From: Arcobacteraceae bacterium
GTDB taxonomy: Bacteria > Campylobacterota > Campylobacteria > Campylobacterales > Arcobacteraceae
Length of the DNA: 64,000 bases
Direction of reading: 5' to 3'
NCBI GenBank assembly: GCA_963662945.1
Contig: OY759974.1
Location: 1,760,001 to 1,824,000, forward strand
In this document: one piece after another, positions 25,226-50,751 of the stretch
Numbering within the stretch: the stretch's first letter is position 1
How the letters are laid out: each line of letters starts with the position of its first letter
Made by a program: the position numbers and the translations under genes
Notes under the pieces: generated by a model
What the model was told of the DNA's origin: nothing
Seen by the model: only the letters and a program-made list of their open reading frames with translations
Database searches by the model: none

Positions 25226-25237
25226 ACTGATTCCTTT

Positions 25238-26638
25238 CTAGTTAAATTTCTTTGTTTGTGCATCTGACACTAGGTCATTTGCCATTTTACTTACATCTTG
25301 TGCTATTGATGCAACTGAGTTTGCTTCACTTGCATTCTCTTGTGTTACTCTATCTAGCATAGTCACTGCATCATTGATTTGTTCTATTCCTGTCATTTGT
25401 TCTTTACTTGCACGACTAACATCTTCGATTAGTTCTATTGTTTGATTAAAGTTCTCATTGAGTGATTCATATCCTTTTATCATATCATCACTTACTTTTT
25501 TACCTTCATTTGCTTTACTTGCTGCATTCTCTACTAATGTTTTTATTTCATTTGCTGCATCTGCACTTCTTGAAGCTAGGTTTCTTACTTCTTGAGCAAC
25601 TACTGCAAATCCTTTTCCAGCTTCACCTGCTGTTGCTGCTTCTACTGCTGCATTAAGTGAGAGAATATTTGTTTGGAATGCTATTTGATCTATTACAGTA
25701 ATAGCTTCATTAATTGCTGTTACTTGAGAGTTTATTTCATCCATTGAAGAAGATGTTTTACTAGCTAATGTCATACCATTAGAAACTTCTGTTTTTACAC
25801 GGCTTCCTAATTCTGACATTTTAGAGGCATTATTTGCATTATTTCTTGTAATACTTGTTATCTCTTCTACTGCTGCTGCTGTTTCTTCCAAGCTAGCTGC
25901 TTGTTGATTTGCTTTATTTGCTAGGTTTGTTACACTTGTTGTCATTGTACTTGAGTTTGTTTGTAGGTGTTCCCCATTTGACAGGTTCTGTTTTGCGCTA
26001 TTTGCTAGGGAGTTCCCTAGGGTGTTTACACTTTGCATTACTGCTAGCATATCGCCTTTGATTTTATGATGAATTTTAATTTTACTTCTAAAGTCATTAT
26101 TTGCATAGAGTTCAACATTTGTTTTTAACTCCTTCATATTTGTTTCTGATTTATTTAAAGTATGGTTTAGAGTCTCTCTTAAAGCTTCAATCATAAAATT
26201 GTGCGATTTTGAATGAATTCTGCATTGATAGATACCTTGAGACATTTTATCAAGTGTAAGAACTATTTCTCCCAATACTTTCATATCCTCTTTTCTCATT
26301 GTATCAAATTGATCAACATAACTATTGAGTTCTGTTAAAATCAGCCCAATCTCATCATGTTTCATGTATTGTGCTTTTTCAATTTTATTTACTCTCATAA
26401 AAGCAAAATCCATAATATCATCCATATATCTTTTGAATCTTTCAATTCCACCACTAATTCTTTGTAATGCAGCATAATTCGTATATGCAATAATAACTGC
26501 AAATATAAGATTTATGATAATAATAGCAGATACTTTTGACTCACTTAAGATTGCAACTATTGAGATTGTTGCAAATCCAATTTGAGCCAAAATCATATTT
26601 ATAAATATTTTCCATTTTGTTGAGACATTTGTAAACAT
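25238..26638 (-). CDS. Methyl-accepting chemotaxis protein, CetA-type (no periplasmic domain)
   Basis: Adjacent N-terminal TM hairpin; MCP signalling motif; paired with the PAS gene. Confidence 0.9.
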
Positions 26639-26681
26639 TTTTTCCCTTTTTTAATAATTTTATTAGATATAATATCACATA

Positions 26682-27929
26682 TTAACTGTTAATTACAACA
26701 TCGTCTAATTTTTTATCTTTTATATTACATAGTACTTCATCTGCTAAATCTATCATCTCTTCTAATGAATTTGAAAAATCTATATTTGCTCCAATACTAA
26801 CAGTGATATTGTATATATTGTCATCTATTTTTAAAGGGGTGTTTTTTATGATACTTTTAATCTCTTCAAAGGTATCTATTATTTCAGCATAAGCTCTATT
26901 TTTAAATAAAATACAAAATTGGTCAGAACCAAATCTTGAGATGATTGAGTCTTGGTTAAGATTTTGATTTAAAATTTTTCCAACATGTTTGATTGCTTCA
27001 TCTCCTATATCATGACCATAAGAATCACACATAACTTCAAAATTATTTATATCTATCATCAATGTAGCTAAAAGTGTTTTTTTAGAAGTGGCTCGTTCGT
27101 AAATATCTCTACCAATTTCTAATAGATATCTCTTATTAAAGAGTCCCGTTAATGGATCTTTTTTTGATTTGTCTTGGGTATAATCAAAAAGTTCTATCAC
27201 CTCTATATTGTTATTTACTCTTGCTATAAACTCTTCATTTGTAAAATCTTTATATAAAAAGTCATTTGCTCCATATTTTAAAAAGTTAGCAACAATCTCT
27301 TTTTCACTAGTGCCAGAAAGTGCAATAATAGCAACTTCATCTTTTTTATAAGTTTTTCTAAGCTCCATAGTAAACTGTAGTCCATCCATCTTTGGCATCA
27401 TATAATCTACTAAAATTACTTTTATATCAGCTCTTTGTTTGATGGTTTCTAAAGCATCTATAGCACTATAGTTTATAGTAGTATTAAGATTATATCTTTT
27501 ACAAAGTGATTCCATTTTTGCTGCAAATGTTTTTGAGTCATCTACTATTAAAATCTCTATTTTTGCATTCAGTATAAATCTTTTTACAACGGCAATAGTA
27601 TAATCTATAGCATAACTTCCATTTTTTAAAACATAATCTATTAAATTATCATTTTTAAAAATATCATCTTTTTTTTCTAACTGTGAACCTGTTAATAAAA
27701 TAGATGGTATTTTAAATTTGTTTATAAAAGATATTATCTCACCATTTTGAGCATCCGGAAGATTATAATCAAGTAATGCCAGGGTAAAATCACCCTTATG
27801 TTTAAGTATCAAGTCTGCACATTCTTTCATGGAAGCGGCAGTGTAAACTTTTAGTCCTAGTTCGTTTTCTATACCTATTTTTAGTCTGTTGAGGATAGTT
27901 TTACTATCATCAACTATTAATATATTCAT
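26682..27929 (-). CDS. REC-REC-GGDEF response regulator, degenerate (GSDQF)
   Basis: Two receiver domains; DPLTGLFN; RFGSDQF. Confidence 0.88.
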   Translation of the reverse strand: MNILIVDDSKTILNRLKIGIENELGLKVYTAASMKECADLILKHKGDFTLALLDYNLPDAQNGEIISFINKFKIPSILLTGSQLEKKDDIFKNDNLIDYVLKNGSYAIDYTIAVVKRFILNAKIEILIVDDSKTFAAKMESLCKRYNLNTTINYSAIDALETIKQRADIKVILVDYMMPKMDGLQFTMELRKTYKKDEVAIIALSGTSEKEIVANFLKYGANDFLYKDFTNEEFIARVNNNIEVIELFDYTQDKSKKDPLTGLFNKRYLLEIGRDIYERATSKKTLLATLMIDINNFEVMCDSYGHDIGDEAIKHVGKILNQNLNQDSIISRFGSDQFCILFKNRAYAEIIDTFEEIKSIIKNTPLKIDDNIYNITVSIGANIDFSNSLEEMIDLADEVLCNIKDKKLDDVVINS

Positions 27930-27937
27930 AATTTTCC

Positions 27938-30139
27938 TTAGTCTTTATATGTTTCTCGTATTTTTAAAAATGCATCTTTATGTTGAAAGAATAGTTCTAC
28001 AAGTTGTGGATCAAATTGTTTTCCTTTTTCCTCTTCAAAAAGTTTGAAAATTCTCTCATCATCCCACGCTTCTTTATAGCATCTTTGACTTCCTAGGGCA
28101 TCAAAGACATCTGCTACTGCTGTAATCCTTCCATAGATATGAATATTTTCACCGCTTAATCCTCTTGGATATCCACTTCCATCCCATTTTTCATGGTGTT
28201 CATGAGATACTATTGAAGCAGCATTGAGAACTTCTCTATTGGAACCTTTTAGGACACTATATCCAATTTCGGCATGAGATTTCATCACTTCAAACTCTTC
28301 ATAAGTAAGTTTTGCAGGTTTTTTTAAGATCTCATCAGGGATACCAACTTTTCCTATATCATGCATAGGGCTAGCTGTAAAAAGTATATTTGCCTCATGT
28401 TCACTTAAGCCGTAACTTAAAGCTAAAAGTTTAGAATACTCAGCAACTCTTTTTACATGATTTCCAGTTTCTTTACTTCTTGTTTCACCTATCTCTCCCA
28501 TTCTGTAAATTACATCTTTTTGTGTATTCTCAATCTCTTCGTGAAGTTCAAATAGTTCAGTTAAATCATGTCTGATTGCCATATATTCTACAATATCATC
28601 TGCTTCATTTTTTATTGGAACAATTGTAGAATTTACCCAATATGTTGTTCCATCTTTTCTTTTATTTTTTAAGATAGCTTGAAATACATTACCTGATTTT
28701 ATTGTATCCCATAAATTTTTTATAATCTCTTTTGGTGTATCTGGATGTTTAAAGATACTATGATTTTTTCCTATAATTTCATCTCTAGAATAGCCAGTGA
28801 TTTCAATAAATTTATCATTGATGTAAGTGATTTTCCCTTTTAAATCGCTTCTTGATAAAATATTTGATTGATTAATAGCATTTTCATACTCTTGTGCTGT
28901 TTGCATTGCAACACTGAGTTTTGCTTCAGTACCTTGAAATTTATCTTGAAAATATGCTTCAATCTCTTTCTTTTGGGTAATATCATTTCGTAGTCCTATA
29001 AACTCTTCTATATTACCATCAGAGTCAACTATAGGTTTTATCATAGCATCTACCCAATAGTATGAGCCATCTTTTTTCCTATTTTTTACTTCACCTCTCC
29101 AAGTTTGTTTAAGTTCTTTGATGGTGTACCACATATTTGTATAGATACCTTTTGGCATATCTGGATGTCTTACAATATTATGATTTTTTCCCAAAAGCTC
29201 TTCTTCTGTATAACCAGAAAGTTCACAAAACTTTTCATTTACATAGGTGATGATTCCAGAGGGATTTGCTTTTGAAACGATAGAACTTTCATCGACCGCA
29301 TTTTTATATTCCTCCAAAATTTTTGTTGAACAAATTATTTCATCTTCTCTTCTTTTATAGTCAATCCATAAATCAGCTTTTAAAACAATCTCTTCTATTA
29401 CATATGGTTTTCGTATGATATCAACTGCACCAGCTTTTAAACCATCTCTTACTATTTCAGCATCTACATTTCCAGAGATAATAATAGTAGCTATTTTTTG
29501 AACATCTACGATTAATTGATGATATTTTTCCAAGAATCTTATACCGTGGGTTTTCCCCAACTGTACATCTAAAAACATCATATCTATTTTTTTATTTTTT
29601 ATAATATCAAGAGCAATATTTTCATCACTTGCAATTTCAATGTTGTAGTATCTATTCGAAAGGATATCTTTAAGTTGCTCTTGTATTACAAAAGAGTCAT
29701 CAACTACAAGTATAGTTTTATTTTTATTTTTTTCTAGTTGTTCTATTGTTTTAGTAACTTGATGAATTTTGTGAAAAAAGCTTTTATCTTTCACAATATA
29801 ATCTATTACACCTCTTTGATAGGAAACTTCTCGAAATTGTTTATCATTTTCACTTGTAAGTACAAATATTTTTTCAGGAGTATTTTCAAGCTTTCTGATA
29901 AGATCATACCCATTTCCGTCAGGAAGGTTAATATCAAGTAATAAATAGTGTATTGTATGTTTTTCTACAGTTTTATAGGCATCTTTAAGTGTTGAAACAC
30001 TAAAGCAGTTAAAACCATCTTTTGTAAACTCTGCTGTTAATATTTTATTGAAAGATGTTGAGTCCTCAATAATAAGTAAATTATAACTTGACGGATTGAA
30101 TTTTTGATGAGAAATTGTATTGCATTGCTCTTGTGACAC
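27938..30139 (-). CDS. REC-REC-PAS-PAS-HD-GYP c-di-GMP phosphodiesterase
   Basis: MHDIGK; HHEKWDGSGYP; two RHPD PAS domains; two REC domains. Confidence 0.92.
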   Translation of the reverse strand: MSQEQCNTISHQKFNPSSYNLLIIEDSTSFNKILTAEFTKDGFNCFSVSTLKDAYKTVEKHTIHYLLLDINLPDGNGYDLIRKLENTPEKIFVLTSENDKQFREVSYQRGVIDYIVKDKSFFHKIHQVTKTIEQLEKNKNKTILVVDDSFVIQEQLKDILSNRYYNIEIASDENIALDIIKNKKIDMMFLDVQLGKTHGIRFLEKYHQLIVDVQKIATIIISGNVDAEIVRDGLKAGAVDIIRKPYVIEEIVLKADLWIDYKRREDEIICSTKILEEYKNAVDESSIVSKANPSGIITYVNEKFCELSGYTEEELLGKNHNIVRHPDMPKGIYTNMWYTIKELKQTWRGEVKNRKKDGSYYWVDAMIKPIVDSDGNIEEFIGLRNDITQKKEIEAYFQDKFQGTEAKLSVAMQTAQEYENAINQSNILSRSDLKGKITYINDKFIEITGYSRDEIIGKNHSIFKHPDTPKEIIKNLWDTIKSGNVFQAILKNKRKDGTTYWVNSTIVPIKNEADDIVEYMAIRHDLTELFELHEEIENTQKDVIYRMGEIGETRSKETGNHVKRVAEYSKLLALSYGLSEHEANILFTASPMHDIGKVGIPDEILKKPAKLTYEEFEVMKSHAEIGYSVLKGSNREVLNAASIVSHEHHEKWDGSGYPRGLSGENIHIYGRITAVADVFDALGSQRCYKEAWDDERIFKLFEEEKGKQFDPQLVELFFQHKDAFLKIRETYKD

Positions 30140-33836: not shown

Positions 33837-34952
33837 ATGCAAAAGTTATCTCTTCTTTTTTTATGTTATGCAACATTATTAGTTGCAGATGATTATAGTT
33901 TTGATTTTAAAGAACTTGAAAAAATAGAAGTAAAAACCTATGAATATACAGGGTATATAAAAGGGGAGCATAAATATCAAGATCTTAACCAAAATTCACC
34001 TAGTTTTCCATCAAAAAATAAATCAAATATGGAAAGCTATTTTGGAGAGGCTTTTTTAAATTATAAATATTTTTATAATGAATTTACATTTGAAACTGAA
34101 TTTATGGCAAACTATGAAAATATTGATTTCAATGAAGAAGATACTTATACAACAAATCAACTTTTTACAAATTATAAATATAATGATAATCATCAACTAA
34201 ATCTTGGGAAAAAAACAGCAACTTGGGGGAAAGGTTATTTTTTTAATCCCATTGCTTTTATAGATAGAAAAAAAGATCCGACAAATCCTGAAGCAAGCAA
34301 AGAAGGATATACAGTTATTAATTATAAATATAATAAAACTTTTCAAAATGAGCTACAAAATTTGACTTTTGACGCTGTATACTTACGAACAACTTCTCAT
34401 ATAAATGAAGACTTTTATAATCAAAACTCTAATACTTTAGTTTTAAAAACGTATTTGTTGTATCAAGATATTGATATAGATTTTGTTTATCTTTATAATG
34501 ATAAATTACCTAATAAATGGGGAGTAGATTTTTCTACTAATCTTCAAACCAATTTTGAAATTCATGGTGAATATGGAAGAAGTGACGATAGTTTATATTC
34601 TTATTTAATTGGTTTAAAATACCTTACTGATTCTGATTTAACAATAATAAGTGAATATTTTTACCAAAATAAAGAATTATCTAAAACACTGAGTTTTTGG
34701 GATAATAGATATATGATAAATAAATTAACTCAAAAAGAGCCGTTTGATATACTTTATTTTAGTGTTTATTTTAAAAATATGTACAATTTTGATGATAATT
34801 CACAACAAAATAATTTAGGACTTATTTATACAAAAATAAAAAATCTTACTATTGACTTTTCTGTAGGGAAGAACTCGGGAAATAGTAGAAGTGAATTTGG
34901 AACAAAATTAGTGGAAAAATTCACATGGCTACAACTAAAATATAATTTTTAA
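33837..34952 (+). CDS. Putative outer-membrane beta-barrel protein
   Basis: Signal peptide; GKK..TWGKGYFFNP; C-terminal WLQLKYNF beta-signal. Confidence 0.7.
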   Translation: MQKLSLLFLCYATLLVADDYSFDFKELEKIEVKTYEYTGYIKGEHKYQDLNQNSPSFPSKNKSNMESYFGEAFLNYKYFYNEFTFETEFMANYENIDFNEEDTYTTNQLFTNYKYNDNHQLNLGKKTATWGKGYFFNPIAFIDRKKDPTNPEASKEGYTVINYKYNKTFQNELQNLTFDAVYLRTTSHINEDFYNQNSNTLVLKTYLLYQDIDIDFVYLYNDKLPNKWGVDFSTNLQTNFEIHGEYGRSDDSLYSYLIGLKYLTDSDLTIISEYFYQNKELSKTLSFWDNRYMINKLTQKEPFDILYFSVYFKNMYNFDDNSQQNNLGLIYTKIKNLTIDFSVGKNSGNSRSEFGTKLVEKFTWLQLKYNF

Positions 34953-35194
34953 ATCGTTTTTTATTGAGGTGAAATTATTATTTTTTTTGTAAGATTAAGA
35001 TATTCTATAAAACTAGAAAATATACTAAAGACTTTTATGGGACTCTTTTATGTTAAAATACAGGTTTTAAGTAAAGATTATTTGATTAATAGATTTACAA
35101 TAGAACATTAAATTATTATGAAAAGGTTTGGAATGAACAATATAAAAAATTTAGGTGCAACTTCTGAGTTTGTTGTATCACTATAGGATTACTG

Positions 35195-37687
35195 ATGATA
35201 GTTAGAGGTATTTTATTACTAAGTATTTTTTTTATTTTTGCTAACGCAGTTGAAAAAAAAGTATCAATCCAACTTTTATGGAAACATCAATTTGAATTTG
35301 CAGGGTATTATGTAGCAAAAGAAAAAGGTTTTTATAAAGAGGTAGGATTAGATGTAGATATAAAAGAGTATGAATTTGGAGTAAACATCGCTAAAGATGT
35401 GAGTGATGGTAAAAGTGATTTTGGAGTTGATAGTTCGGCTTTAATTTTAGACAAAATTCATGGACTAGATGTTTATTTACTTATGCCTACTTTACAAACG
35501 TCCCCTTTTGTATTATTAGCAAAAAAACGAGATGATTTAAAAACTGTTTCTGATTTAAAAGGTAAACGAGTTATGTTTACTCCAAATCAAGTAACTATGG
35601 CTTCATTGAATGCAATGTTTAAAGTAAATAATCTTTCTAGTAAAGATTTTATCTCTCAAGAACATAGTTTTAATACACAAGATTTAATAGATGGAAAAAC
35701 AGATGCTTTAACAGCTTATATTTCTAATGAACCTTTTTATATGATAGAAAAGAATCAAGACTATACTATTTTTAACCCCTCTGATTATGGTTTTAATTTT
35801 TATGATAATATTCTTTTTACTTCGCAAAAACTTTTTAAAAAAGATCCTCAATTAGTAAAAAATTTTTATGAAGCAACGAAAAAAGGTTGGGAGTATGCAT
35901 TTACTAACGTGGAAGAGAGTGCGAAAATTATACAGCAAAAGTATAATACGCAAAATAAATCATTAAAACATTTGATTTTTGAAGGAAATGAGCTTAAAAA
36001 ATTAAGTCATTTTGGGGCAAATGAGTATCATAAATTTAAGCCAGAAATCATCAGTCAAATTATACAAACATATAATTTATTGGATATTTCTAAATCGACA
36101 GTTGATATAAAAGAATTAATATATCCAGATGCAATGTATGTTGAAAGTAGTATTGATTATACACTTTTATTAGAGATTGTAGGTGCAATTTTAGTTTTAT
36201 TTATAGGATTTTATTATTGGAATAGAAAGTTATCATATCTTAATAAAACGATTCAAAAAAGTAGAAATAAAATTGCAGTATTACTTGATAATGCGGGACA
36301 AGGCTTTTTAACTTTTGATACAAACTTTATTGTTGATGATGAATATTCAACAGAGTGTACTAAAATTTTAGGAAATAATATTGCATCTCAAGATATTGCT
36401 GATTTATTATTTACAGATAGTGCTAAAAAAGAGTTTTTTAAAAATACATTAAAACTGTTATTACAAGAGAAAAATGAAATTAAAAGAAAATCTCTTATAT
36501 CTTTATTACCTCAAATAATTATAATAAATAAAAAAGCTATTAAAATAGAATATAAAGTTTTGGATGAAAGTTACTTTATGTTGATTTTAACAAATATTAC
36601 ATCACAAAAGAAGCTTGAAAACAAAGTCAAAAAAGAGCAAGAAACGTTAAAAATGATTGTAGCTATTGTAAGTGAATCTGAAATGTTTTTTGATTTAAAA
36701 AAAGAGTACATAAATTTTATCCATTCATATTCAACTTTTGTAGACTTAGATAAAACGCCTTTACACAATATAAGTAGTATTTATAGAATGATACATACAT
36801 TTAAAGGGACTTTTTCGCAATTATATATGCAAAATATAGTTGCTTTTTTACATCAATTAGAAAATGAAATATCTCATTTACAAATTAAAAGTAGTAGTTC
36901 TAATGAACAGTTATTAGAACTTTTAGATAATAGTGATTTTAATAAAAGTTTGAATATTACATTTAATATTATTAAAGAGGTTTTAGGTTCAGAGTTTTTA
37001 GAATCAGATAATTTTGTAAAGATAGATTATTTAGATATTGTAGATTTACAAGAAAAAATTGAAAATGTTTTAGGTAAACTCAAAGAAACAACACCTGAGT
37101 GTTATGAATTATTGTGTCAAGTACAAAATCTTTCTAGTACAAAACTCATAACACTATTACATCCATTTATTGCATCTACAAAACAGTTATCATCAAGACT
37201 TGAAAAAGAGATTTACGATTTTGAGATTATTGGAGATAGTAATATTGCTTTACCTGATAAATATAAACCTATGATAAAATCATTAGTTCATATTTTTAGA
37301 AACTGTATTGATCATGGGATTGAAAGTCCAGAAGTAAGATTGGAAAAAAATAAAGATGAAGTTGGTACTATCGCTTGTAACTTTGTTGTTGAAGATAGTA
37401 ATTTAATCATATCAATTTCAGATGATGGGGAAGGAATTAATTTAGATAAATTTAGAACTAAACTTAAAGAAAAAAATATTGATATTACAAATTTATCAGA
37501 AAATGAAATTTATCAATTCATTTTTGATGATAATTTTACAACAAATGAAAAATTATCAGACATCTCAGGAAGAGGAATTGGTATGAGTGCTGTAAAAAAT
37601 GAAGTTGATAAACTCAATGGAGTGATTAATATAAATTCACAAAAAGATAGTGGAACTACTTTTGAAATAGTAGTACCCCTTTCATAA
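35195..37687 (+). CDS. Membrane-anchored CheA-like kinase: NMT1/THI5-type periplasmic binding domain, TM, PAS-like, Hpt, HATPase (no CheW domain)
   Basis: LLWKHQFEFAGYYVAKEKGFY; IHTFKG; HIFRNCIDHGIE; DDGEG; SGRGIGMSAVK. Confidence 0.85.
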   Translation: MIVRGILLLSIFFIFANAVEKKVSIQLLWKHQFEFAGYYVAKEKGFYKEVGLDVDIKEYEFGVNIAKDVSDGKSDFGVDSSALILDKIHGLDVYLLMPTLQTSPFVLLAKKRDDLKTVSDLKGKRVMFTPNQVTMASLNAMFKVNNLSSKDFISQEHSFNTQDLIDGKTDALTAYISNEPFYMIEKNQDYTIFNPSDYGFNFYDNILFTSQKLFKKDPQLVKNFYEATKKGWEYAFTNVEESAKIIQQKYNTQNKSLKHLIFEGNELKKLSHFGANEYHKFKPEIISQIIQTYNLLDISKSTVDIKELIYPDAMYVESSIDYTLLLEIVGAILVLFIGFYYWNRKLSYLNKTIQKSRNKIAVLLDNAGQGFLTFDTNFIVDDEYSTECTKILGNNIASQDIADLLFTDSAKKEFFKNTLKLLLQEKNEIKRKSLISLLPQIIIINKKAIKIEYKVLDESYFMLILTNITSQKKLENKVKKEQETLKMIVAIVSESEMFFDLKKEYINFIHSYSTFVDLDKTPLHNISSIYRMIHTFKGTFSQLYMQNIVAFLHQLENEISHLQIKSSSSNEQLLELLDNSDFNKSLNITFNIIKEVLGSEFLESDNFVKIDYLDIVDLQEKIENVLGKLKETTPECYELLCQVQNLSSTKLITLLHPFIASTKQLSSRLEKEIYDFEIIGDSNIALPDKYKPMIKSLVHIFRNCIDHGIESPEVRLEKNKDEVGTIACNFVVEDSNLIISISDDGEGINLDKFRTKLKEKNIDITNLSENEIYQFIFDDNFTTNEKLSDISGRGIGMSAVKNEVDKLNGVININSQKDSGTTFEIVVPLS

Positions 37688-37707
37688 AACTAGAAAAGGA
37701 AATAAAT

Positions 37708-38181
37708 ATGATATTAGATGCATTAATACTTCAATCAAAACTTTTTTTGTCTGAAGATATGGGAATAGATATAAATAATATAACAATTGATGAACTTAAT
37801 CCAGATAAATTGATTTTAAAAGATTATACTTCAATGATTGGTACTGGTGGAACTCTTAATTTAATGATTATTATTAGTTATGATAGTAATTTATTAAATC
37901 ATTTAGTGACACTTTTTATGGATGGTGAAGAGGTAGCACAAGATGAAATGGTTGAAGTGATTGATAGTGTGTCTGGAGAAACAATTAATACTATTATAGG
38001 GCTTGCTTTACCAACATTTCCAAATAGAGGTAAAGGTGTGACTATTACTCCACCAATTACGATAAATGATGCTTCAAATATTAAAAAATATAAAAACTCT
38101 AAAATAGTAAGTGCCAATATAGTAACACAATATGGTGAATTAAGTATTAGTGCCGTTGGTACAGAAGAATCAATAAAATAA
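37708..38181 (+). CDS. cheX: CheX-like phosphatase
   Basis: GETINTIIG (ExxN); ITPPITI; located between kinase and CheY. Confidence 0.75.
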   Translation: MILDALILQSKLFLSEDMGIDINNITIDELNPDKLILKDYTSMIGTGGTLNLMIIISYDSNLLNHLVTLFMDGEEVAQDEMVEVIDSVSGETINTIIGLALPTFPNRGKGVTITPPITINDASNIKKYKNSKIVSANIVTQYGELSISAVGTEESIK

Positions 38182-38199
38182 GAAAAAAGGATAAAAAAT

Positions 38200-38613
38200 A
38201 TGTTAAAAGTTTTAGTAGTAGATGATTCACTTATTATAAGAAAAAAGATTACAAATTTATTAGAAAAATTAGGTCATGAGGTTGTTTTTAGTGCAACAAA
38301 TGGTCAAGAAGCGATTGATGGATATAATCAAACAAAACCAGATTTAGTAACAATGGATATAACAATGCCAGATATGGATGGTATAACAGCTGTAAAAAAT
38401 ATTATAAAAGATAATGCAGATGCTAAAATAATTATGGTAACATCTCATGGACAAGAAGATATGGTTATTAAATCAATTCAAGCAGGGGCTGTTGGATATA
38501 TGCTAAAACCTATTACTGAAGATAAATTAGCAGCTTCAATTGGTGAAGTTTTTATTGAATATGCTGTTGATGAAGAAGATGAAGATTTAGATATTTTAGA
38601 TGATGAGATTTAG
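38200..38613 (+). CDS. Single-domain response regulator (CheY-like)
   Basis: VVDD; MDITMPDMDG; KP; acidic tail. Confidence 0.92.
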   Translation: MLKVLVVDDSLIIRKKITNLLEKLGHEVVFSATNGQEAIDGYNQTKPDLVTMDITMPDMDGITAVKNIIKDNADAKIIMVTSHGQEDMVIKSIQAGAVGYMLKPITEDKLAASIGEVFIEYAVDEEDEDLDILDDEI

Positions 38614-38623
38614 GATTTAAAGA

Positions 38624-39556
38624 ATGGAAGAAAACAAACTTTTTGAAGCACTTTTAGATGTAATACCCTTTGCTGCATATGCCGTAGATATTGAGACTTA
38701 TGAAGTGGTATACGCAAATAAACTAATGGGAGAAAGTTTGTATGCACCGAGAGAAAACTTTTGTTGGAAAAAAGTTTTTGGACAAAATGAAGTTTGTAGT
38801 TGGTGTACAATTTCAGAGTTAAAGCAAAGAAAAGCTATTTATCATAGTGAAAAACTTGTTACAAACTTTTTTGATGAAGTAACTGACAAATGGCTTCAAA
38901 GTTACGATGAGCTTGTTAGATGGCCTGATGGAAGAACTGTAAAATACTCCATAGCTGTTGATATTACAGAACAAAAAGAGATACAAGCAAATATGATTAA
39001 AACTCATACAAAGCTTGCAATACAAACAAAAGCGTTACGAGAAGCTAATGAAAAGTTAGAATATATGGCTACAAAAGATTACTTAACAGGGATTAATAAT
39101 AGGGGTAGTTTTTTTGAACAAGCGAAAAAAATATGGGAACAGCCACTCAAAACAAATGAAAAAATATATATAGCTATGTTTGATCTTGATAAATTTAAAA
39201 ATATTAATGATACTTATGGACATCAAGTAGGGGATACAGTGCTTAAAGAATTTGCTAAGAGTGTTTCCTCAAATATAGATGAAAATGATATATTCGCTAG
39301 AATTGGTGGCGAAGAATTTGTTTTATTAACTATAAGTGAAGATGAAAAAAAAGTAATAGAAAAACTTGAAAAAATGAGACAAAATGTAGAAAATTTATCT
39401 TTAACTTCTCAAAAGGAGAATTTACAATTGACAGTATCAATTGGACTAAGTTCTAAACTTGATAATCAAACAATAGATCAAACTCTTGATTTCGCAGATA
39501 AAAAACTTTATGAAGCAAAAAATAGTGGAAGAAATAACATAAAGTTTAGATTATAA
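38624..39556 (+). CDS. Cys-PAS diguanylate cyclase
   Basis: PAS with C-x10-C-x2-C; DYLTG; RIGGEEF. Confidence 0.9.
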   Translation: MEENKLFEALLDVIPFAAYAVDIETYEVVYANKLMGESLYAPRENFCWKKVFGQNEVCSWCTISELKQRKAIYHSEKLVTNFFDEVTDKWLQSYDELVRWPDGRTVKYSIAVDITEQKEIQANMIKTHTKLAIQTKALREANEKLEYMATKDYLTGINNRGSFFEQAKKIWEQPLKTNEKIYIAMFDLDKFKNINDTYGHQVGDTVLKEFAKSVSSNIDENDIFARIGGEEFVLLTISEDEKKVIEKLEKMRQNVENLSLTSQKENLQLTVSIGLSSKLDNQTIDQTLDFADKKLYEAKNSGRNNIKFRL

Positions 39557-39570
39557 ATTAGGGATGCAAT

Positions 39571-41781
39571 ATGTTAGAAAATAAATTATTTGAAGCATTA
39601 TTAGATGTTATTCCTTTTGGGGCATATGCTGTAGATGTAGAAACTTATGAAATTGTTTATGCAAATAAAATAGTAAGAGAAAATATGTATGCACCACAAG
39701 AAACATATTGCTGGGAAAAAATATACGGACAAAATGAGATTTGTAGTTGGTGTAGTATTATAAATCTTCAACAACGAGTTCGCGGGGTTAAAAAAGAAAA
39801 ATATACTTGTGAGTTTTTTGATGAAATAGATGATAAATGGATAAAGTCTTATGATGAACTTATATGCTGGCCAGATGGTAGAGATGTAAAATACTCCATT
39901 TTAGTTGATACTACTGATCAAAAAGCAACTCAAGGTTCAATGATACAATCTCATGCAAAATTAGCAGTAAAATCAAAGCAGATTACAAAAACAAATCAAA
40001 ATCTTCAAATAACAAAATTAAAACTTCAAAAAACAGTAAGAGAACTTCAAGAACAAAAAGAAAAAGCAGAAGAAGCAACAAAGTTTAAATCAAATTTTTT
40101 AGCAAATATGAGTCATGAAATCAGAACACCAATGAATGGTATTTTAGGTATGACACATTTAGCACTTCAAACAGATGATATAGTAAAACAAAAAGAGTAC
40201 ATACAAAAAATTGATAGTTCAGCAAAAAACTTATTATATATTATAAATGATATTTTAGATTTTTCTAAAATAGAAGCAGGAAAATTAGAAGTTGAAAAGA
40301 TAAGTTTTGATATGAAAAGTGTTATAACAAATCTTCGAAATATTACTGAACTTAAAGCTGATGAAAAAAATATTTCATATGAAATATTTTATGAAGAGGA
40401 AAATAGTATTTATATAGGTGATCCAATACGACTTGGGCAAATTTTGATAAATTTAGTTAATAATGCAATAAAGTTTACTCACAGTGGAGGAGTTCAAGTT
40501 TATGTTGAAAGCTTAGATAATACTGTTAGATTTATAGTAAAAGACAGTGGAATTGGGATTACAAAAGAACAACAAAAAATATTATTTCAATCTTTTTCTC
40601 AAGCAGATGTTAGTACAACTAGAAAATATGGTGGTACAGGTTTAGGATTGTCCATATCTAAACAACTTGTTGAGATGATGGGTGGTAAAATTGAAATTTA
40701 TAGTGAATTTGGAAAGGGAAGTGAATTTGTATTTGAATTACCTTTACAAAAAGGGTTAGAAGATAGTATTGACACACCAGTTCAGTCATTAAATCAATTA
40801 TTACAACAAATGACATTATTGGATAAAGTGAAAATACTTTTAGTAGAAGACAATGAAACGAATCGATTTTTAATTCAAGGACTTCTTGAGTTTGATTCCA
40901 TCGAGGTTGTAAATGCATATGATGGAAAAATGGCGGTAGATATTTTTCAAAAGTTTTCAAATGATTTTGATTTGATTTTAATGGATATTCAAATGCCTGT
41001 TATGGATGGATACGAAGCTACCAAAATTATAAGAGAACAAAATCAACAAATACCAATTATCGCATTAAGTGCAAATGCGATGGTTCAAGATATTCAAAAT
41101 AGTAAAAATGCGCAGATGAATGAGCATTTAAATAAACCATTAGAAGTTGAATCACTTTATCGATGTATTTTAAAATATTGTACAAAGAAAAAAATAGTAG
41201 TATCTCCAAATAATAGTGAAGATATTATTGTTATCCCAATATTAAAACATATTGATATCAATTATGGGCTGACTATGGTCAATCAGAATAGAAAGTTATA
41301 TGTGAAAATTTTATTAAGTTTTTATGATAATTATTCTAATTTAAATTTAGAATCTTTAAGTAAAGAAGAATTTTTAAGAACTATTCATACATTAAAAGGT
41401 TTGAGTGCAAATATTGGTGCAAAAGATTTTTATGAAATTATAAAACACATTGAAAGTGTAGAAGATAGTTTTTTTATAGAACAGTTTTATAAAGAATTGA
41501 AATTGATTTTAGAAGAAATTAAAGAGTTGAAAAATATAAAATATTCTCAAGATAATAAAGAAAAGTTAGATATTGATGAAAATGAAAAAAACATTTTGTT
41601 TGACAATCTAAAACAAGCACTGATGACAAAAAAACCTAAAAAATGTTATGACGTAATAGAGGTATTAAATAAATATAAATTAAATGAAGAAGATAAAAAA
41701 CTATTTGAAAGTACAAAAAAATTTATAGAAAAATTTAATTTTAACGAAGCCCTAAAATTATTTGAAAGTGTAAATCATTAA
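39571..41781 (+). CDS. Hybrid histidine kinase (Cys-PAS, HisKA, HATPase, REC, Hpt)
   Basis: [32 protein letters not shown]. Confidence 0.93.
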
Positions 41782-42065
41782 AGAACAAGTTTTAATTTTT
41801 TTTGTTCATTATTTTTAAAAATCATTTTTATTTGTTTATCATCTAATAATAGTTGTTTAAGTATTTTTGTTTCAATATTTGTAATTTCTTTTTTCTCAAG
41901 AAAATCATCTATTATCTCTTTTGCTGAATCAATATCAGTATTTTGAGTAAATTCAATAAGTAGTGAGTTATCACTAAGTACAATCTTTTGATTTGATATT
42001 CTAAAATTTTTAAATTTGCCTGTAAGCTTAAAAAACTCTAGTTTATTTCGTCTTGATAAGTACAC
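41778..42065 (-). CDS. Hypothetical protein (may start at ATC 42098)
   Basis: 95-aa ORF filling the gap between convergent genes; upstream AGGAG. Confidence 0.55.
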
Positions 42066-42184
42066 ATAATTTTTTATGTATATAAATTTTTCTTCGATAA
42101 TAAACTCCTAAATAATTACAAAATATCCTTCATATTATTATAAAAATAGACTTAACTTTAGGTTAACTTAATTTTAAACGTATA

Positions 42185-42493
42185 CTAGGAATTACATTTT
42201 TTTTCTAGATCAGGTATTTCCATATTAAGGTAACTAATCTCTTTTAGAATTGACTGCCTAAATTGGTCTAGAGGTTTTCTTACACTATAGTATGCCCATC
42301 TTCCTTTTCTATCAACTTTTAAAAAACCTGCATCTTTAAGTATTTTTAAATGTCGTGATATTCTTGACTGTATCATCCCAAATGAGTTTTCAATGTCACA
42401 AACACATACTTCGCCATTTATATTTATAAAATGAAGTATTTTAATTCTTGTTTCATCATTTAAACTACTGATTGTTTTTAGAAATATCTCCAT
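42185..42493 (-). CDS. arsR: ArsR/SmtB family repressor
   Basis: EVCVCDI; QSRISRHLKILK; RKGRWAYY. Confidence 0.9.
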   Translation of the reverse strand: MEIFLKTISSLNDETRIKILHFININGEVCVCDIENSFGMIQSRISRHLKILKDAGFLKVDRKGRWAYYSVRKPLDQFRQSILKEISYLNMEIPDLEKKCNS

Positions 42494-45690: not shown

Positions 45691-46653
45691 TTATAAAATT
45701 ATATTAAACATATACCCAACAAGAAGTATTCCTAAACCTACAATTGCAAAAAATATAGCGATAAGTTTAATATCTAATATTCTTTTTAATATCATAGCTT
45801 CTGGTAAACTTAAAGCTGTAACAGCCATCATAAATGCCAACGCACTTCCAAGTAACATCCCTTTGGCTGTTAATACTTCAACAAGTGGCATAACTCCTGC
45901 TGCGTTTGCATACATTGGTATCCCCATTAAAACAGCAACTGGCACAGCATACCAAGCATCGCCACCTGCATATTTTGCGATAAATTCTGCAGGAATATAT
46001 CCATGAATAAATGCACCAATTCCAACACCAATCATCACATAAAGATATATTTTTTTGAAAATATCGGCTGTATATTCCCAAGCTTCTTTTACTCTTTGTT
46101 GTAATGTAAGTTTAATTTGAACATCTTCAAGTTCTCCCTCAATTGGAGTAACAGGAATCAAAACATATTTTTCTATATTTTTGATTTTCCCTATAAAATA
46201 TCCACCAAATATAGCAACTACTAGTCCAAAACCTATATAGATAGCTGTAATTTTCCATCCAAACAGTCCAAATAACATTGCTATTGCAATTTCATTGTTT
46301 AAAGGAGATGAGATAAGAAAACTAAAAGTTATCCCTATAGGGATTCTTGCTTGCATAAATCCAAGAAATAATGGTATAGCACTACAGCTACAAAAAGGTG
46401 TAATGATACCAAAAAGTGCAGCAAGAATATTTCCACTAAATTCTGATTTTCCTTGTAGATACACACGAACTTTTTCCGTGTTAAAATAGGTTCGTAAAAA
46501 ACTTACTGCAAAAATAATAGTGATAAGTAAAATAAATATTTTTATAGTATCATAGATAAAAAAATGTGTAGCACTTCCTACAGCACTAGTAGATTCTAGT
46601 CCCCAAAAGTTATAAACTAATTTATCAACAATTTTTTCCCACCAATCAAACAT
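45691..46653 (-). CDS. arsP: ArsP-family permease
   Basis: TPFCSCSAIP; ALSLPE; ars context. Confidence 0.85.
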   Translation of the reverse strand: MFDWWEKIVDKLVYNFWGLESTSAVGSATHFFIYDTIKIFILLITIIFAVSFLRTYFNTEKVRVYLQGKSEFSGNILAALFGIITPFCSCSAIPLFLGFMQARIPIGITFSFLISSPLNNEIAIAMLFGLFGWKITAIYIGFGLVVAIFGGYFIGKIKNIEKYVLIPVTPIEGELEDVQIKLTLQQRVKEAWEYTADIFKKIYLYVMIGVGIGAFIHGYIPAEFIAKYAGGDAWYAVPVAVLMGIPMYANAAGVMPLVEVLTAKGMLLGSALAFMMAVTALSLPEAMILKRILDIKLIAIFFAIVGLGILLVGYMFNIIL

Positions 46654-47054
46654 TATAATCCTAAAGCTTTTTGAATTTTAGGAATTAAAATCATTTCAAT
46701 TTCATCGTACGTTTCTTCAAATGCCTCAAAACCTTTTCCATCTGGATCCTCAAATCCCACATGAATTTTAGGAATTGGTTTTGGAAACATTGGACAAGTT
46801 TCATTTGCATGGTCACATACAGTGATAACTAAATCAAAATCTTCATCGATAACTGTATCAAGTGTTTTACTGTGATATTCCTCTTTCCAAATTCCTTTTT
46901 CTTGTAGAAGTTTTTTTGCATTTGGATTCACTTTTCCACTAGCTTTCACTCCACTACTTTGGGCTTTTACTCCATTAAGTTTTGCATTTATAAGTGCTTC
47001 TGCTATGATACTTCTACAGCTATTTCCTGTACATAATACTAATACTTTTTTCAT
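46653..47054 (-). CDS. arsC: Thioredoxin-coupled arsenate reductase
   Basis: CTGNSCRS; CDHANETCP; DP. Confidence 0.93.
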   Translation of the reverse strand: MKKVLVLCTGNSCRSIIAEALINAKLNGVKAQSSGVKASGKVNPNAKKLLQEKGIWKEEYHSKTLDTVIDEDFDLVITVCDHANETCPMFPKPIPKIHVGFEDPDGKGFEAFEETYDEIEMILIPKIQKALGL

Positions 47055-47066
47055 GTTTTTTCCTTT

Positions 47067-48320
47067 TTAAATTAATGTTAATAAAACTATAAATAACACA
47101 GGTGGTGTTACTATCATTCCAAATTTACTGTATTCTTTAAAACTGATTTTTACCCCTTTTTGTGATAATACATGCAACCATAATAGCGTAGCTAAGCTAC
47201 CAAATGGTGTCATTTTCGGTCCTAAATTACATCCAATAATATTTGCATATATCATTGCCTCATTTCCAATGTTTGCTAATGAAATATCCATAATCATAAT
47301 AGTTGGCATATTGTTCATAAAAGCACTTAAAAAAGCTGCGATAAAACCTGTACCAACAACTGCTATAAAATCACTTTGTGTAGCTAAATCTTTGAGTATT
47401 ACCTCTAGATAATCTGTTAGTCCAGCATTTTTAAGTCCATAAACAACTATATAAAGTCCAATACTGAACCACACAACTTGCCAAGGTGCTGTTTTAATAG
47501 TAAGCCATGCACGAGCAGATTTTGTGTAACTGGCAATTGCTAAAAATAAAAGTCCACCACCCAAAGCAAATAAACTTATTGGAAGATTATAAATATCTCC
47601 TATAAAATATCCAACTAAAAGTAGAGCTAAAAAGAACCAACTAAATTTAAAAAGTGCTTTATTTTTTAAAACATCATCTGGATTTTTAAGAAGCGTTATG
47701 TCTATCTCTTTTGGAATATCTTTTCGTAAAACTACCCATAGTACAATTATAGAGATAATTGTACTTACAACATAAGGGATAAACATATTTGATAGATATT
47801 CCACAAAACCTATATGAAAATAATTTGCTGTTACGATGTTTGTAAGATTTGAAAATACAAAAGGGAGTGATGCACTATCACTGATAAATCCACCTGCAAG
47901 TAAAAAAGCAATAATAGTTTTAAAATTGAGTTGTAGTATTCTCATTTTAGCTAAAAGTATTGGAGTGAGTATAAGTGCAGCTCCATCATTTGCAAAAAGT
48001 GCAGATACAAATGAACCTAAAAGTAGAGCATAGATAAACATCAAATGACCATTACCACGTGATAGTTTTGCCATTTTAATAGCACACCATTCAAAAAAAC
48101 CTATCTCATCTAAAACCATAGATAAAATAATAATTCCAATAAAAGCTAATGTAGCATCCCAAACTATATTTGTTACAGTTAATACATCATTAAAACTTAC
48201 AGCTCCAAATAGTAAAGCAGTTATTGCCCCTATAATTGCAGTTGTTCCTATTTGTAAATTTTTTGGTTGCCAAATAACAAACAAAAGGGTGAGTAAAAAT
48301 ATTACACTAGCAGTGAACAT
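47067..48320 (-). CDS. arsB: Arsenite efflux pump
   Basis: VIWQPK; FANDGAALILTP; SNLTN; GSLATLLW. Confidence 0.95.
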   Translation of the reverse strand: MFTASVIFLLTLLFVIWQPKNLQIGTTAIIGAITALLFGAVSFNDVLTVTNIVWDATLAFIGIIILSMVLDEIGFFEWCAIKMAKLSRGNGHLMFIYALLLGSFVSALFANDGAALILTPILLAKMRILQLNFKTIIAFLLAGGFISDSASLPFVFSNLTNIVTANYFHIGFVEYLSNMFIPYVVSTIISIIVLWVVLRKDIPKEIDITLLKNPDDVLKNKALFKFSWFFLALLLVGYFIGDIYNLPISLFALGGGLLFLAIASYTKSARAWLTIKTAPWQVVWFSIGLYIVVYGLKNAGLTDYLEVILKDLATQSDFIAVVGTGFIAAFLSAFMNNMPTIMIMDISLANIGNEAMIYANIIGCNLGPKMTPFGSLATLLWLHVLSQKGVKISFKEYSKFGMIVTPPVLFIVLLTLI

Positions 48321-49365: not shown

Positions 49366-50751
49366 ATGACAAAAATAATTGATTTAAAAGAATTTGCATA
49401 TTTTTTAAGAGTTCATAGAAATGATATTATAACAAATTGGCTTGAAAGAAATGAAGTGAAAAATATTATTCATAAACATTCAATACCAATAGTTGAAAAA
49501 AATATGAATATTTTTTATGGATTTTGTGATTGTTTTATAAGTATTTATCAATGGAATTTTACAATATCAGAATGTCAGGCAAGGATGGATTTTTTACATC
49601 TTCTAAATAAATATAATGTTACGAATAATGAACTTTATACATTGATATTACGATTACAATCAGCAATAGAAAATGCAATTTATAAAGATGGAAATCTTTC
49701 TTATAATATTCAGATGGAATTGGAAACAGTTACCATAAGTATTGCAAATGAACTTACTGATACATATGCGCATTTAAAGGATGAAAATAGTTATAAGCAA
49801 AATGAGCAGAGTAATCTTTTAGCTGAATATAAAAAAGCAGTAGATATTAGTAATATTGTATCAAAAACAAATCCTAAAGGGATTATCACCTATGTAAACG
49901 ATAAGTTTTGTAAAATAAGTGGATATACACAAGAAGAACTTATTGGAAAAGCACATAATATTATACGGCATCCAAGTATGGATAGAGAAGTATTTAAAGA
50001 GTTATGGGATACTGTAAAATCTAAAAAATCTTGGCATGGAATAGTGACTAATATGGCAAAAGATGGAAGTTCTTATGTTGTTGACTCTACTGTGATTCCT
50101 ATACTTGATGTTGATGGTGATATTATAGAATTTATTGCAGTTAGACATGATATAACAGAATTTGAAAAAACAAAAGAACAGTTACAAAATATTAATAAAG
50201 TTATGAGAAATAAAGTTGATGAACTTTATTCAGTTACATCCTCTTTGGAAGAAAAAGCAACAAAAGACGAGTTAACAAGTTTATATAATAGAGCTAAATT
50301 TGAAGAGATTTTTTCATATGAGATTAACAAAGCAAAACATTATAATCACAATTTAAGTGTAATATTATTTGATATAGATCATTTTAAAAATATTAATGAT
50401 ACTTATGGACATCAAGCGGGAGATGTTACATTAAAAGAGCTTTCAAGTTTGATTGCGAAAAATATTAAAACAAGTGATGTATTTGCAAGATGGGGTGGTG
50501 AAGAGTTTATTATACTTTTACCTGATACTGATATTGAAGGCGCTTTACAATTTGCTCAGAAATTAAGAAAATTAATTAAAGCAAATAAATTTACTGAAAT
50601 AGAATTTATGACAGCAAGTTTTGGTGTTGCGCAGTTTGAGGAATATGAAGATAAGCTTACCTTATTTGAAAAAGTTGATAAAGCATTATATATAGCAAAA
50701 AATAATGGTAGAGATAGAGTAGAACAAAGTCTTTTTAATTGTGTGCACTAA
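49366..50751 (+). CDS. Diguanylate cyclase with helical N-terminal domain and PAS
   Basis: RHPSM PAS; DELTSLYNR; RWGGEEF. Confidence 0.9.
   Translation: MTKIIDLKEFAYFLRVHRNDIITNWLERNEVKNIIHKHSIPIVEKNMNIFYGFCDCFISIYQWNFTISECQARMDFLHLLNKYNVTNNELYTLILRLQSAIENAIYKDGNLSYNIQMELETVTISIANELTDTYAHLKDENSYKQNEQSNLLAEYKKAVDISNIVSKTNPKGIITYVNDKFCKISGYTQEELIGKAHNIIRHPSMDREVFKELWDTVKSKKSWHGIVTNMAKDGSSYVVDSTVIPILDVDGDIIEFIAVRHDITEFEKTKEQLQNINKVMRNKVDELYSVTSSLEEKATKDELTSLYNRAKFEEIFSYEINKAKHYNHNLSVILFDIDHFKNINDTYGHQAGDVTLKELSSLIAKNIKTSDVFARWGGEEFIILLPDTDIEGALQFAQKLRKLIKANKFTEIEFMTASFGVAQFEEYEDKLTLFEKVDKALYIAKNNGRDRVEQSLFNCVH

Follow-up and report, generated by a model that had tools for sequence, protein, structure and literature searches.

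Histidine kinases that combine sensory domains with an Hpt domain and a CheA-type ATPase, and that have no CheW domain, were reportedly defined in silico as class III histidine kinases by Adebali et al. in 2017. They are said to lack a dimerization domain and to be accompanied by CheX and a single-domain response regulator; an odd soluble chemoreceptor reportedly lies near many of them, and their output is said to have been tentatively assigned to type IV pili, with pilT in the genome. Here, we analyze a five-gene operon at positions 35195 to 41781 of a 64,000-nucleotide (nt) stretch of an Arcobacteraceae bacterium genome (contig OY759974.1; hereafter, the window), whose kinase/CheX/CheY core is presumably of this class III type. 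PMC6501615 cites the class III kinases with a one-sentence summary, and experimental work on a kinase of this kind was not found in the literature searched, a search that had most subscription journals and all supplements outside its scope.

Sequence comparison and structure models establish the domain order, the intact catalytic residues of all five proteins, the missing P5 and coupling genes, and the conserved tight linkage of the operon. With modest confidence, we read it as a receptor-independent, three-protein phosphorylation module made from chemotaxis parts and coupled to a dedicated cyclic di-GMP (c-di-GMP) output. The operon belongs to a large, barely studied signaling family, the core of which is already known in kind from the class III kinases reportedly described in silico. 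The likely new parts are the output, a diguanylate cyclase headed by a PAS domain with invariant cysteines (Cys-PAS), and, in some lineages, a fusion with the SiaABC system. No description of the Cys-PAS, of the cyclase partnership, or of the SiaABC fusion was found in the literature searched, within the same limited scope, where supplements may list the genes.

A sensor-fused CheA-type kinase and its operon partners

The five open reading frames (ORFs) are all on the + strand and are separated by 20, 18, 10, and 14 nt, in keeping with a preceding sequence-only reading that had described five tightly spaced, co-oriented genes. Upstream of the kinase ORF, 242 nt are free, and purine-rich stretches precede the start codons of the operon. 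The genes are as follows:

35195..37687, + strand: sensor kinase, 830 residues, with signal/anchor, NMT1, transmembrane helix, PAS-like domain, Hpt, short hairpin, and CheA-type P4
37708..38181, + strand: CheX-type phosphatase of phosphorylated CheY, 157 residues (Pfam CheX, E 8e-13)
38200..38613, + strand: single-domain CheY-like receiver, 137 residues (receiver E 2e-31; best NCBIfam model CheY)
38624..39556, + strand: diguanylate cyclase, 310 residues, with Cys-PAS (1-114), stalk helix (115-150), and GGDEF (150-305)
39571..41781, + strand: hybrid histidine kinase, 736 residues, with Cys-PAS, HisKA, HATPase_c, REC, and a weak Hpt

The first protein had been read as a fusion of an NMT1-like domain, a transmembrane helix, an Hpt, and a CheA-type ATPase. 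Pfam, PDB, NCBIfam, and AlphaFold agree with this, the Hpt match being weak, and delimit its parts:

35291..35917, + strand: NMT1/THI5-like (SsuA-family) solute-binding domain, residues 33-241 (Pfam E 4e-47)
36146..36223, + strand: transmembrane helix, residues 318-343 (Kyte-Doolittle 19-residue windows above 1.6)
36299..36595, + strand: cytoplasmic PAS-like domain, residues 369-467 (structure model, atlas, invariant columns)
36599..36985, + strand: Hpt (P1-like) helical bundle, residues 469-597, with predicted phospho-His534 (codon 36794-36796)
37028..37135, + strand: two short helices, residues 612-647, linking Hpt to P4 (structure model)
37145..37684, + strand: CheA-type catalytic ATPase (P4), residues about 651-829 (HATPase_c 696-829; N, G1, and G2 boxes invariant)

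The NMT1 domain also matched TIGR01728 SsuA_fam (E 2e-14) and the structures 4nmy (E 1e-16) and 3ix1 (E 5e-11), and it is predicted to be periplasmic because hydrophobic segments at residues 1-20 and 318-343 flank it. The AlphaFold model of residues 345-830 (mean predicted local distance difference test [pLDDT] score 83.1) orders the remainder as a juxtamembrane helix, a PAS fold, a helical bundle with His534, two short low-confidence helices, and P4. The PAS-like domain occupies strands and helices at fragment positions 25-123 (pLDDT 80-92); the segment 345-480 lies nearest to PAS_7 clusters in the atlas (score 0.95), and homologue alignments contain invariant G, F, L, S, and C columns, while no Pfam family matched the segment even at E ≤ 10. 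The Hpt, modeled as helices at fragment positions 125-253, was weak in Pfam (E 0.004 for the full-length protein, below the Pfam cut-off; E 2e-4 for a sub-fragment) and matched the CheA P1 structure 1tqg at E 0.02. Within it, IHTFKG occupies residues 533-538, and the H, T, K, G, and F were invariant in 67/67 and 29/29 aligned homologues.

The ATPase is of the CheA type. Its closest solved structures are CheA P4 (1i5d/1i58, E 1e-31, residues 658-829), and the NCBIfam CheA models scored 137 and 110 bits on the kinase, every other kinase model reaching at most 38 bits. When the family was aligned to E. coli CheA with hhalign, the match (probability 99.9) covered CheA residues 327-511, which correspond to P4, alone, with no alignment to P1, P3, or P5. 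The catalytic motifs HIFRNCIDHGIE (residues 699-710) and SGRGIGM (791-797) are present, and the 67-homologue alignment keeps H534-T-x-K-G-F, the N box (H, N, D, H, G), DDGxG, and SGRGxG invariant. The chain stops at residue 830, just one position past the ATPase, where the sequence-only reading had it finish without a CheW/P5 domain. Pfam detected no CheW, HisKA, or H-kinase_dim domain in it at E ≤ 0.01; a CheW or HisKA domain would have contradicted that reading. Between Hpt and P4, the two low-confidence helices (fragment positions 268-284 and 290-303, pLDDT 52-64) carry no sequence signal, with neither an H-kinase_dim match nor an hhalign alignment to E. coli CheA outside P4. The best Foldseek match of the kinase model is the P3P4 fragment of T. 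maritima CheA (4xiv_A; 249 columns against a 250-residue chain, template modeling score 0.68 by target), and by this model, the hairpin is possibly a shortened P3-like dimerization element.

All 72 ORFs of the window were scanned against Pfam. None within the operon is a methyl-accepting chemotaxis protein (MCP), CheW, CheR, or CheB, as had been noted, and no CheW, CheR, CheB, or canonical CheA was found among the 72; E. coli CheW and CheA-P5, used as phmmer queries in all six frames, likewise matched nothing across the window. Two MCP genes do lie elsewhere in it, at 4206-6479 and 25238-26638, both on the - strand. No pilT-like family was present among the 72 ORFs, which cover 64 kilobases (kb) of the genome.

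Pfam also recovered the CheX, CheY, GGEEF cyclase, and Hpt-bearing hybrid kinase that had been said to follow. S-x3-E-x2-N...P is the known catalytic motif of CheC/CheX proteins, and the operon CheX carries it as S87-x3-E91-x2-N94...P116. Among 58 family sequences, fused forms included, the E is conserved in 56, the N in 57, and the P in 57. The operon CheY shares 36% identity with its E. coli counterpart, and D8, D9, D53, T81, Y100, and K103 are invariant in 36/36 sequences. Its C-terminal tail (residues 120-137) is acidic, with two hydrophobic residues followed by D/E-D/E (ILDDEI here), and nearly all family CheY sequences have such a tail, whether or not the locus contains a cyclase; the tail could serve for docking to the kinase, which lacks P2, or to CheX.

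The cyclase has a clear GGDEF domain (Pfam E 6e-41; TIGR00254 E 2e-46) with GGEEF at residue 228, and D187, D189, N195, D204, R226, and K299 are invariant in 36/36 orthologues, so that the set of active-site residues is complete. At the position of the inhibitory RxxD site it has DEND, where distant orthologues carry RESD or RKSD (alignment judged by eye). Its model (mean pLDDT 81.4) consists of a PAS fold, a 36-residue stalk helix, and GGDEF, and the best fold matches are the PAS-GGDEF proteins 5xgd and 8c05 and SiaD 7e6g (32% identity). The hybrid kinase contains HisKA at 173-237 (H182, E 5e-21), HATPase_c at 283-393, REC at 422-530 (D472), and a weak C-terminal Hpt (E 0.006) with IHTLKG at 605 and H606. 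Over their first 146 residues, the two proteins are 60% identical (E 8e-66). The shared domain, which spans residues 1-114 of the cyclase and 1 to about 120 of the hybrid kinase, had no meaningful match in Pfam at E ≤ 10 and no sequence match in PDB; its nearest atlas clusters are PAS_4 (score 0.97). The sequence-only reading of the kinase and cyclase architectures was thus right in outline and missed this shared domain, the PAS-like domain of the kinase, and the P3-like hairpin.

The defining feature of the Cys-PAS is a C-x10-C-x2-C motif, in which C47, W48, C58, W60, and C61 are invariant in 36/36 diverse orthologues. Among the copies listed, C47, C58, W60, and C61 are kept in 120/120 cyclases and 55/55 hybrid kinases, and W48 in 120 and 54, respectively. 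The cysteine loop is the lowest-confidence region of the cyclase model, as expected where a metal or cluster site goes unmodeled, and the three invariant cysteines probably hold a metal or iron-sulfur (Fe-S) center. A search of 5.8 billion clustered proteins (E ≤ 0.001) found the domain in two architectures only, GGDEF proteins of about 310 residues (223 matches; GGDEF in 118 of the 120 listed, the other two being short) and HisKA-HATPase-REC proteins of about 735 residues (54/54). A single cysteine is also conserved in the kinase: Cys388 (E-Y-S-x-E-C motif, residues 387-393, window 36353-36373) is invariant in 67/67 and 29/29 homologues, which hints at a cofactor or redox-sensitive site there too.

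Kinase family, inputs, and gene neighborhoods

To gauge the size of the family, a profile of the PAS-Hpt part (311 positions) was compared with 1.84 billion representatives, clustered at 50% identity; it matched 6183 at E ≤ 1e-3, 2707 at 1e-10, and 890 at 1e-30. With at least 890 clusters in the family, the uniqueness that had been ascribed to the design was overstated. Homologues of the same architecture, retrieved by a word-indexed search, are 39-83% identical and mainly labeled Arcobacteraceae, Sulfurimonas, and Campylobacterales, while others match just the cytoplasmic 58% of the kinase, behind different sensors. Their database names are "CheA" at JGI, because a MiST2-type rule calls any HK_CA:Che protein CheA (an older rule, given in PMC2808908), and "ABC transporter substrate-binding protein" at NCBI. 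The top profile match (P0244) has 4858 residues and 32 matched stretches, an apparent giant repeat of PAS-Hpt or of its PAS part.

We surveyed the inputs by Pfam in 29 locus kinases and 46 spread representatives (6 of the 46 by their best 5 families). More than 12 kinds were found overall: NMT1, SBP_bac_3, dCache_1, dCache_2, dCache_3, CHASE2, CHASE8-HAMP, NIT, 7TMR-DISM, GAF, PAS, REC, Reg_prop/Y_Y_Y, and an [FeFe]-hydrogenase-like module. Neither in these two sets nor in 120 listed homologues was there a single CheW, HisKA, or H-kinase_dim domain. A C-terminal fusion of the kinase to CheX occurs in 21/46 sampled representatives and in 12/74 loci.

Several of these variants deserve mention in their own right. 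Bacillota members (L068, 3172-6552; P0294) fuse an Fe_hyd_lg_C and 4Fe-4S module to Hpt, CheA-type ATPase, and CheX, which suggests, from domain content, a hydrogen or redox input on the same kinase chassis. Ahead of the CHASE8-HAMP kinases (L024, 4450-9461; L039, 4468-9434; L030; L071) lie genes for a TonB-dependent receptor and a YfiR/HmsC-like periplasmic protein, and this kinase core appears, by sequence likeness, to re-use the sensor half of the YfiBNR cyclase system. Sister kinases of about 769 residues (L002-L006, L037, L038, L040, L042, L044, L063, L072, and L073) have no recognizable periplasmic Pfam domain and are preceded by a separate SBP_bac_3 gene. At L002-L006, such a kinase stands in tandem with an NMT1-fused one, followed by a single CheX-CheY pair; the tandem partners are close in the tree, which points to duplication and then sensor swap. 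Two tandem kinases before one CheX-CheY pair were seen at seven loci in all.

We then compared gene neighborhoods. A scan of one genome per species yielded 428 relatives, of which the 74 most similar loci were retained. Linkage was counted by start-agnostic six-frame phmmer at loci with enough downstream sequence (for CheX, at least 700 nt); this count replaces an ORF-based one, in which spurious opposite-strand ORFs had displaced genes and led to under-counting. CheX was directly downstream or fused in 61/69 loci with room, CheY downstream in 57/64, and the Cys-PAS-GGDEF cyclase downstream in 40/63. Three loci (L023, L072, and L073) were scored as misses, though their CheX-CheY genes sit upstream or divergent. 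The Cys-PAS hybrid kinase was found in 17/74 loci, and in at least 20 the cyclase is joined by another Cys-PAS protein, be it a kinase or a domain on its own. A CheW-like sequence was seen in 1/74 loci and an MCP in 3/74.

In a quick maximum-likelihood tree used for locus relationships, the operon groups with Arcobacteraceae loci, and cyclase-bearing loci occupy most of one 69-row clade; the order kinase-CheX-CheY-cyclase is retained across Campylobacterota, Gammaproteobacteria, and Desulfocapsa loci. For all 6 cyclase-free loci of the dCache type, the source assembly also yielded a second family locus, five of which have the cyclase and one of which is cut off before the cyclase position. It is possible, judging from these gene contents, that one cyclase output is common to the two loci of an assembly.

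In the kinase-CheX fusion clade, a further system joins the cluster. Directly upstream lie a SpoIIE/HAMP phosphatase, a DUF6272 protein, and a SiaC-family phosphoprotein (SiaC in 9/74 loci, a SiaB-like gene in 8/74), followed by kinase-CheX, two CheY, and the Cys-PAS cyclase. An eight-gene cluster at L046 (5039-11863), for instance, contains SiaA-like, SiaB-like, SiaC, kinase-CheX, two CheY, and Cys-PAS cyclase genes, and the same SiaABC-containing cluster recurs at L048, L049, L050, L052, L053, L057, L058, and L060. The kinase-CheX proteins linked to it are 716-719 residues long and nearly sensor-less, and come from metagenome-assembled genomes labeled Gammaproteobacteria, Desulfocapsa, Sulfurimonas, and others. 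A phmmer count of SiaA at 38 loci was discarded, inflated as it was by common HAMP/coiled-coil segments. No SiaABC genes occur in the window; the best NCBIfam model of the operon cyclase is SiaD, at 162 bits, short of the cut-off of 290. In P. aeruginosa, the SiaD cyclase becomes active when SiaC binds to its stalk (PMC8457831). By analogy, a small partner protein can control cyclases of this stalk-GGDEF kind, and the CheA-type module, to judge from gene order, would occupy the same regulatory position as the SiaABC partner switch.

Possible routes from the kinase to c-di-GMP

We propose that a small ligand would bind the NMT1/SsuA-type periplasmic domain and that the signal, judging from the model, would travel via the transmembrane helix, the juxtamembrane helix, and the PAS-like domain into the Hpt. 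The C-terminal helix of the PAS continues into the Hpt bundle, so access of the ATPase to His534 could change. Phosphorylated His534 would then donate its phosphate to Asp53 of CheY, from which CheX would strip it quickly, giving a fast, resettable signal; we infer this step because the catalytic residues are intact, the gene linkage is near-obligate, and kinase-CheX fusions exist. Phosphorylated CheY (CheY~P) has no output domain and must therefore act by binding a target. The least certain step is the nature of this target, which may be the Cys-PAS head of the cyclase and the hybrid kinase, so that ligand status would be turned into c-di-GMP synthesis. Three points favor this target: Cys-PAS is confined to the system, the gene order is conserved, and SiaC and SiaD set a precedent. 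With a metal or Fe-S center in the Cys-PAS, the same node would also respond to a redox or metal signal from the cytoplasm, as its second input.

In its fullest form, the proposal makes Cys-PAS a new receptor for CheY~P: an array-free kinase would report the ligand occupancy of its periplasmic domain through CheY~P, which would dock on the Cys-PAS head of a SiaD-like cyclase and of a hybrid kinase and so switch c-di-GMP synthesis, with the three-cysteine metal or Fe-S site gating this node by redox state. We put this version forward tentatively, as possible rather than probable. If true, the operon would be a self-contained chemotaxis-to-second-messenger converter, widespread in Campylobacterota and merging with the SiaABC partner switch in other phyla.

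A link between kinase and c-di-GMP had already been proposed from the sequence. Its architectural part stands on the domains found, and the link is more than adjacency because the same cyclase lies downstream in 40/63 related loci. The cyclase has no receiver domain; phosphoryl control of it, if any, is therefore indirect. Further observations, like this one, weigh against the coupling. The cyclase is absent downstream in 23/63 loci with room, and c-di-GMP is therefore not a universal output of the family. In the quick tree, the outermost clades, including Bacillota, Cellvibrionales, and Algicola loci, are without it, and the fractions from the 74 loci hold for the near family alone. Among the matches of the Cys-PAS search, no natural fusion of REC to Cys-PAS was present, and an invariant cysteine triad is at least as compatible with a cofactor sensor that works autonomously as with a site for docking. 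The acidic CheY tail was considered as a cyclase-specific docking motif and rejected, being equally present in cyclase-free loci. As to co-transcription, a consensus scan of 34800-42300 for promoters and terminators was uninformative in this AT-rich DNA, with 48 promoter-like sites where 52.5 were expected and 2 terminator-like sites where 1.2 were; an Rfam search of the whole window found no family.

The same genes could also form parallel pathways, in which the kinase, CheX, and CheY steer a target encoded elsewhere, either the flagellar switch or type IV pili as reportedly proposed for class III kinases, while the cyclase and hybrid kinase act as an independent redox or metal branch. The 23 loci that have the core without the cyclase fit this arrangement, as does the placement of the invariant C-x10-C-x2-C in a low-confidence loop, typical of an unmodeled cofactor site. 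The resemblance of CheY to E. coli CheY, with Y100 at the switch-aromatic position, would suit a flagellar target, and the two MCP genes in the window indicate that the organism probably performs chemotaxis. We nevertheless think parallel pathways rather unlikely: a domain found solely in two operon-partner architectures would be odd for a general redox sensor, and the gene order is kept across distant lineages, from Campylobacterota to Desulfocapsa. Another arrangement, a branched phosphorelay, would have the hybrid kinase swap phosphate with the kinase Hpt or with CheY, leave CheY and CheX mainly as a sink, and set the cyclase by Cys-PAS heterodimerization. The hybrid kinase does possess its own REC (D472) and Hpt (H606), the two Cys-PAS proteins are encoded side by side and share 60% identity across that domain, and at least 20 cyclase loci have another Cys-PAS protein. 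Yet the hybrid kinase is found in just 17/74 loci, whereas CheX and CheY are nearly universal, and many loci have a stand-alone Cys-PAS with no kinase part; we hold the phosphorelay to be improbable.

The database names would instead make the first protein either a CheA that has decayed or been truncated and still relies on CheW/MCP arrays, or a mere ABC-transporter binding protein. Both are barely credible. The P4 end point and the PAS-Hpt core recur in 890 clusters, and all catalytic boxes are invariant in the 67-homologue alignment; an end point conserved throughout the family rules out that the protein is a truncated CheA or a pseudogene. There is no P5 for array docking, and inputs are fused directly to the kinase. 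As for a binding protein, the polypeptide has a complete kinase in covalent linkage with its binding domain. Together, these considerations leave the receptor-independent module with a c-di-GMP output as the reading that we prefer.

This reading matters for several reasons. Work on CheA is normally confined to large receptor arrays, and a sensor-fused CheA-type core offers a simpler system for P1-P4 switching, one to which the family supplies over a dozen interchangeable inputs. The conserved Cys-PAS cyclase gives the kinase class a concrete candidate output in c-di-GMP, and Cys-PAS may add a new domain to the targets of single-domain response regulators. Censuses requiring HisKA (PMC9239204) or CheW (PMC10542144) pass over the family; therefore, signaling inventories of Arcobacteraceae, Sulfurimonas, and their relatives are incomplete. 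The former, a census of Campylobacterota signaling, counted only kinases with HisKA and HATPase and would miss the family because of that restriction.

Genomic surroundings and comparison with known systems

Upstream, the operon is bordered by an unrelated ABC/FtsX/LolA-like export cluster, and downstream by a convergent series of a small ORF, ArsR, Peptidase_M99, and SulP. The small ORF (95 residues, 41778-42065, - strand) is convergent with the hybrid kinase and overlaps its stop codon by 4 nt; it had no Pfam or NCBIfam match, was not seen at the equivalent position in the closest locus (L001), and may be no gene. Arsenic-resistance-type genes follow on the - strand: ArsR at 42185-42493, an ArsP-type permease at 45691-46653, a low-molecular-weight phosphatase/ArsC-like gene at 46653-47054, ArsB at 47067-48320, and an ArsC-family gene at 53542-53898.

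A signaling island lies about 5 kb upstream of the operon, on the - strand at 24833-30139. There, a stand-alone PAS protein (24833-25225) adjoins one of the MCPs (25238-26638), a pair that resembles the bipartite pairs of energy taxis. Proteins of the REC-REC-GGDEF (26682-27929) and REC-REC-PAS-PAS-HD-GYP (27938-30139) types come next. Two further diguanylate cyclases, PAS-GGDEF at 49366-50751 and dCache_3-GGDEF at 50848-52326, are on the + strand, which brings the GGDEF proteins of the window to at least four.

Among described systems, class III histidine kinases come closest, with a fused sensor, Hpt, and CheA-type ATPase, no CheW, and an adjacent CheX and single-domain regulator. They reportedly have no dimerization domain, whereas the model of the operon kinase includes a short hairpin aligned to CheA P3, and they are said to lie often near a soluble chemoreceptor, whereas here an MCP is near 3/74 loci and the usual neighbor is the Cys-PAS cyclase. 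Two similar terms in the literature are unrelated: "Class III HK" in 10.1101/2023.11.03.565435 has a different meaning, and the CheX of PMC9321776 is an F3-class cheX-fliNO gene, not the CheX of this operon.

Canonical CheA shares a P1-type Hpt with an HxxKG phospho-histidine, a P4 that is 31-38% identical (T. maritima CheA P4, superposed at 2-3 Å), a likely CheY substrate, and a CheX phosphatase. It differs in that the operon kinase has no P5/CheW, no P2, and at best a stub of P3, but has its own periplasmic sensor, transmembrane helix, and PAS domain. Berry, Andrianova, and Zhulin, who surveyed 13,673 CheA sequences, found CheW in 100% of them and define CheA as lacking a sensor (PMC10542144); by that definition, the operon kinase is not a CheA, because it lacks CheW and has its own sensor. 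Class I sensor kinases have HisKA/DHp before the ATPase, where the operon kinase has no HisKA-family match in Pfam.

As inputs to kinases, periplasmic solute-binding folds are familiar. BvgS and EvgS have fused Venus-flytrap domains, and LuxPQ and TorTS use separate binding proteins, as the sister kinases here do with SBP_bac_3; all four are built on HisKA/DHp cores, while the operon kinase has an Hpt and a CheA-type core. In NreB, clustered PAS cysteines hold an Fe-S cluster; such cysteine-ligated PAS domains reportedly have four cysteines, and the Cys-PAS has three that are invariant.

On the output side, the Wsp system (WspA-F with WspR) likewise uses CheA-type phosphorylation chemistry to steer c-di-GMP synthesis, instead of or besides motility, but does so with MCP, CheW, CheR, CheB, and a REC-GGDEF cyclase, none of which is in the operon. 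The PAS-stalk-GGDEF cyclases of solved structure (LOV-activated 8c05 and PA0861, 5xgd) have the same PAS-coiled coil-GGDEF layout as the operon cyclase. The likeness to SiaABCD extends further: the stalk-GGDEF cyclase is 32% identical to SiaD (7e6g) and stands at the SiaD position, behind SiaA, SiaB, and SiaC, in 9/74 loci. What sets it apart from SiaD is the extra N-terminal Cys-PAS, together with a kinase, CheX, and CheY module that is inserted or substituted.

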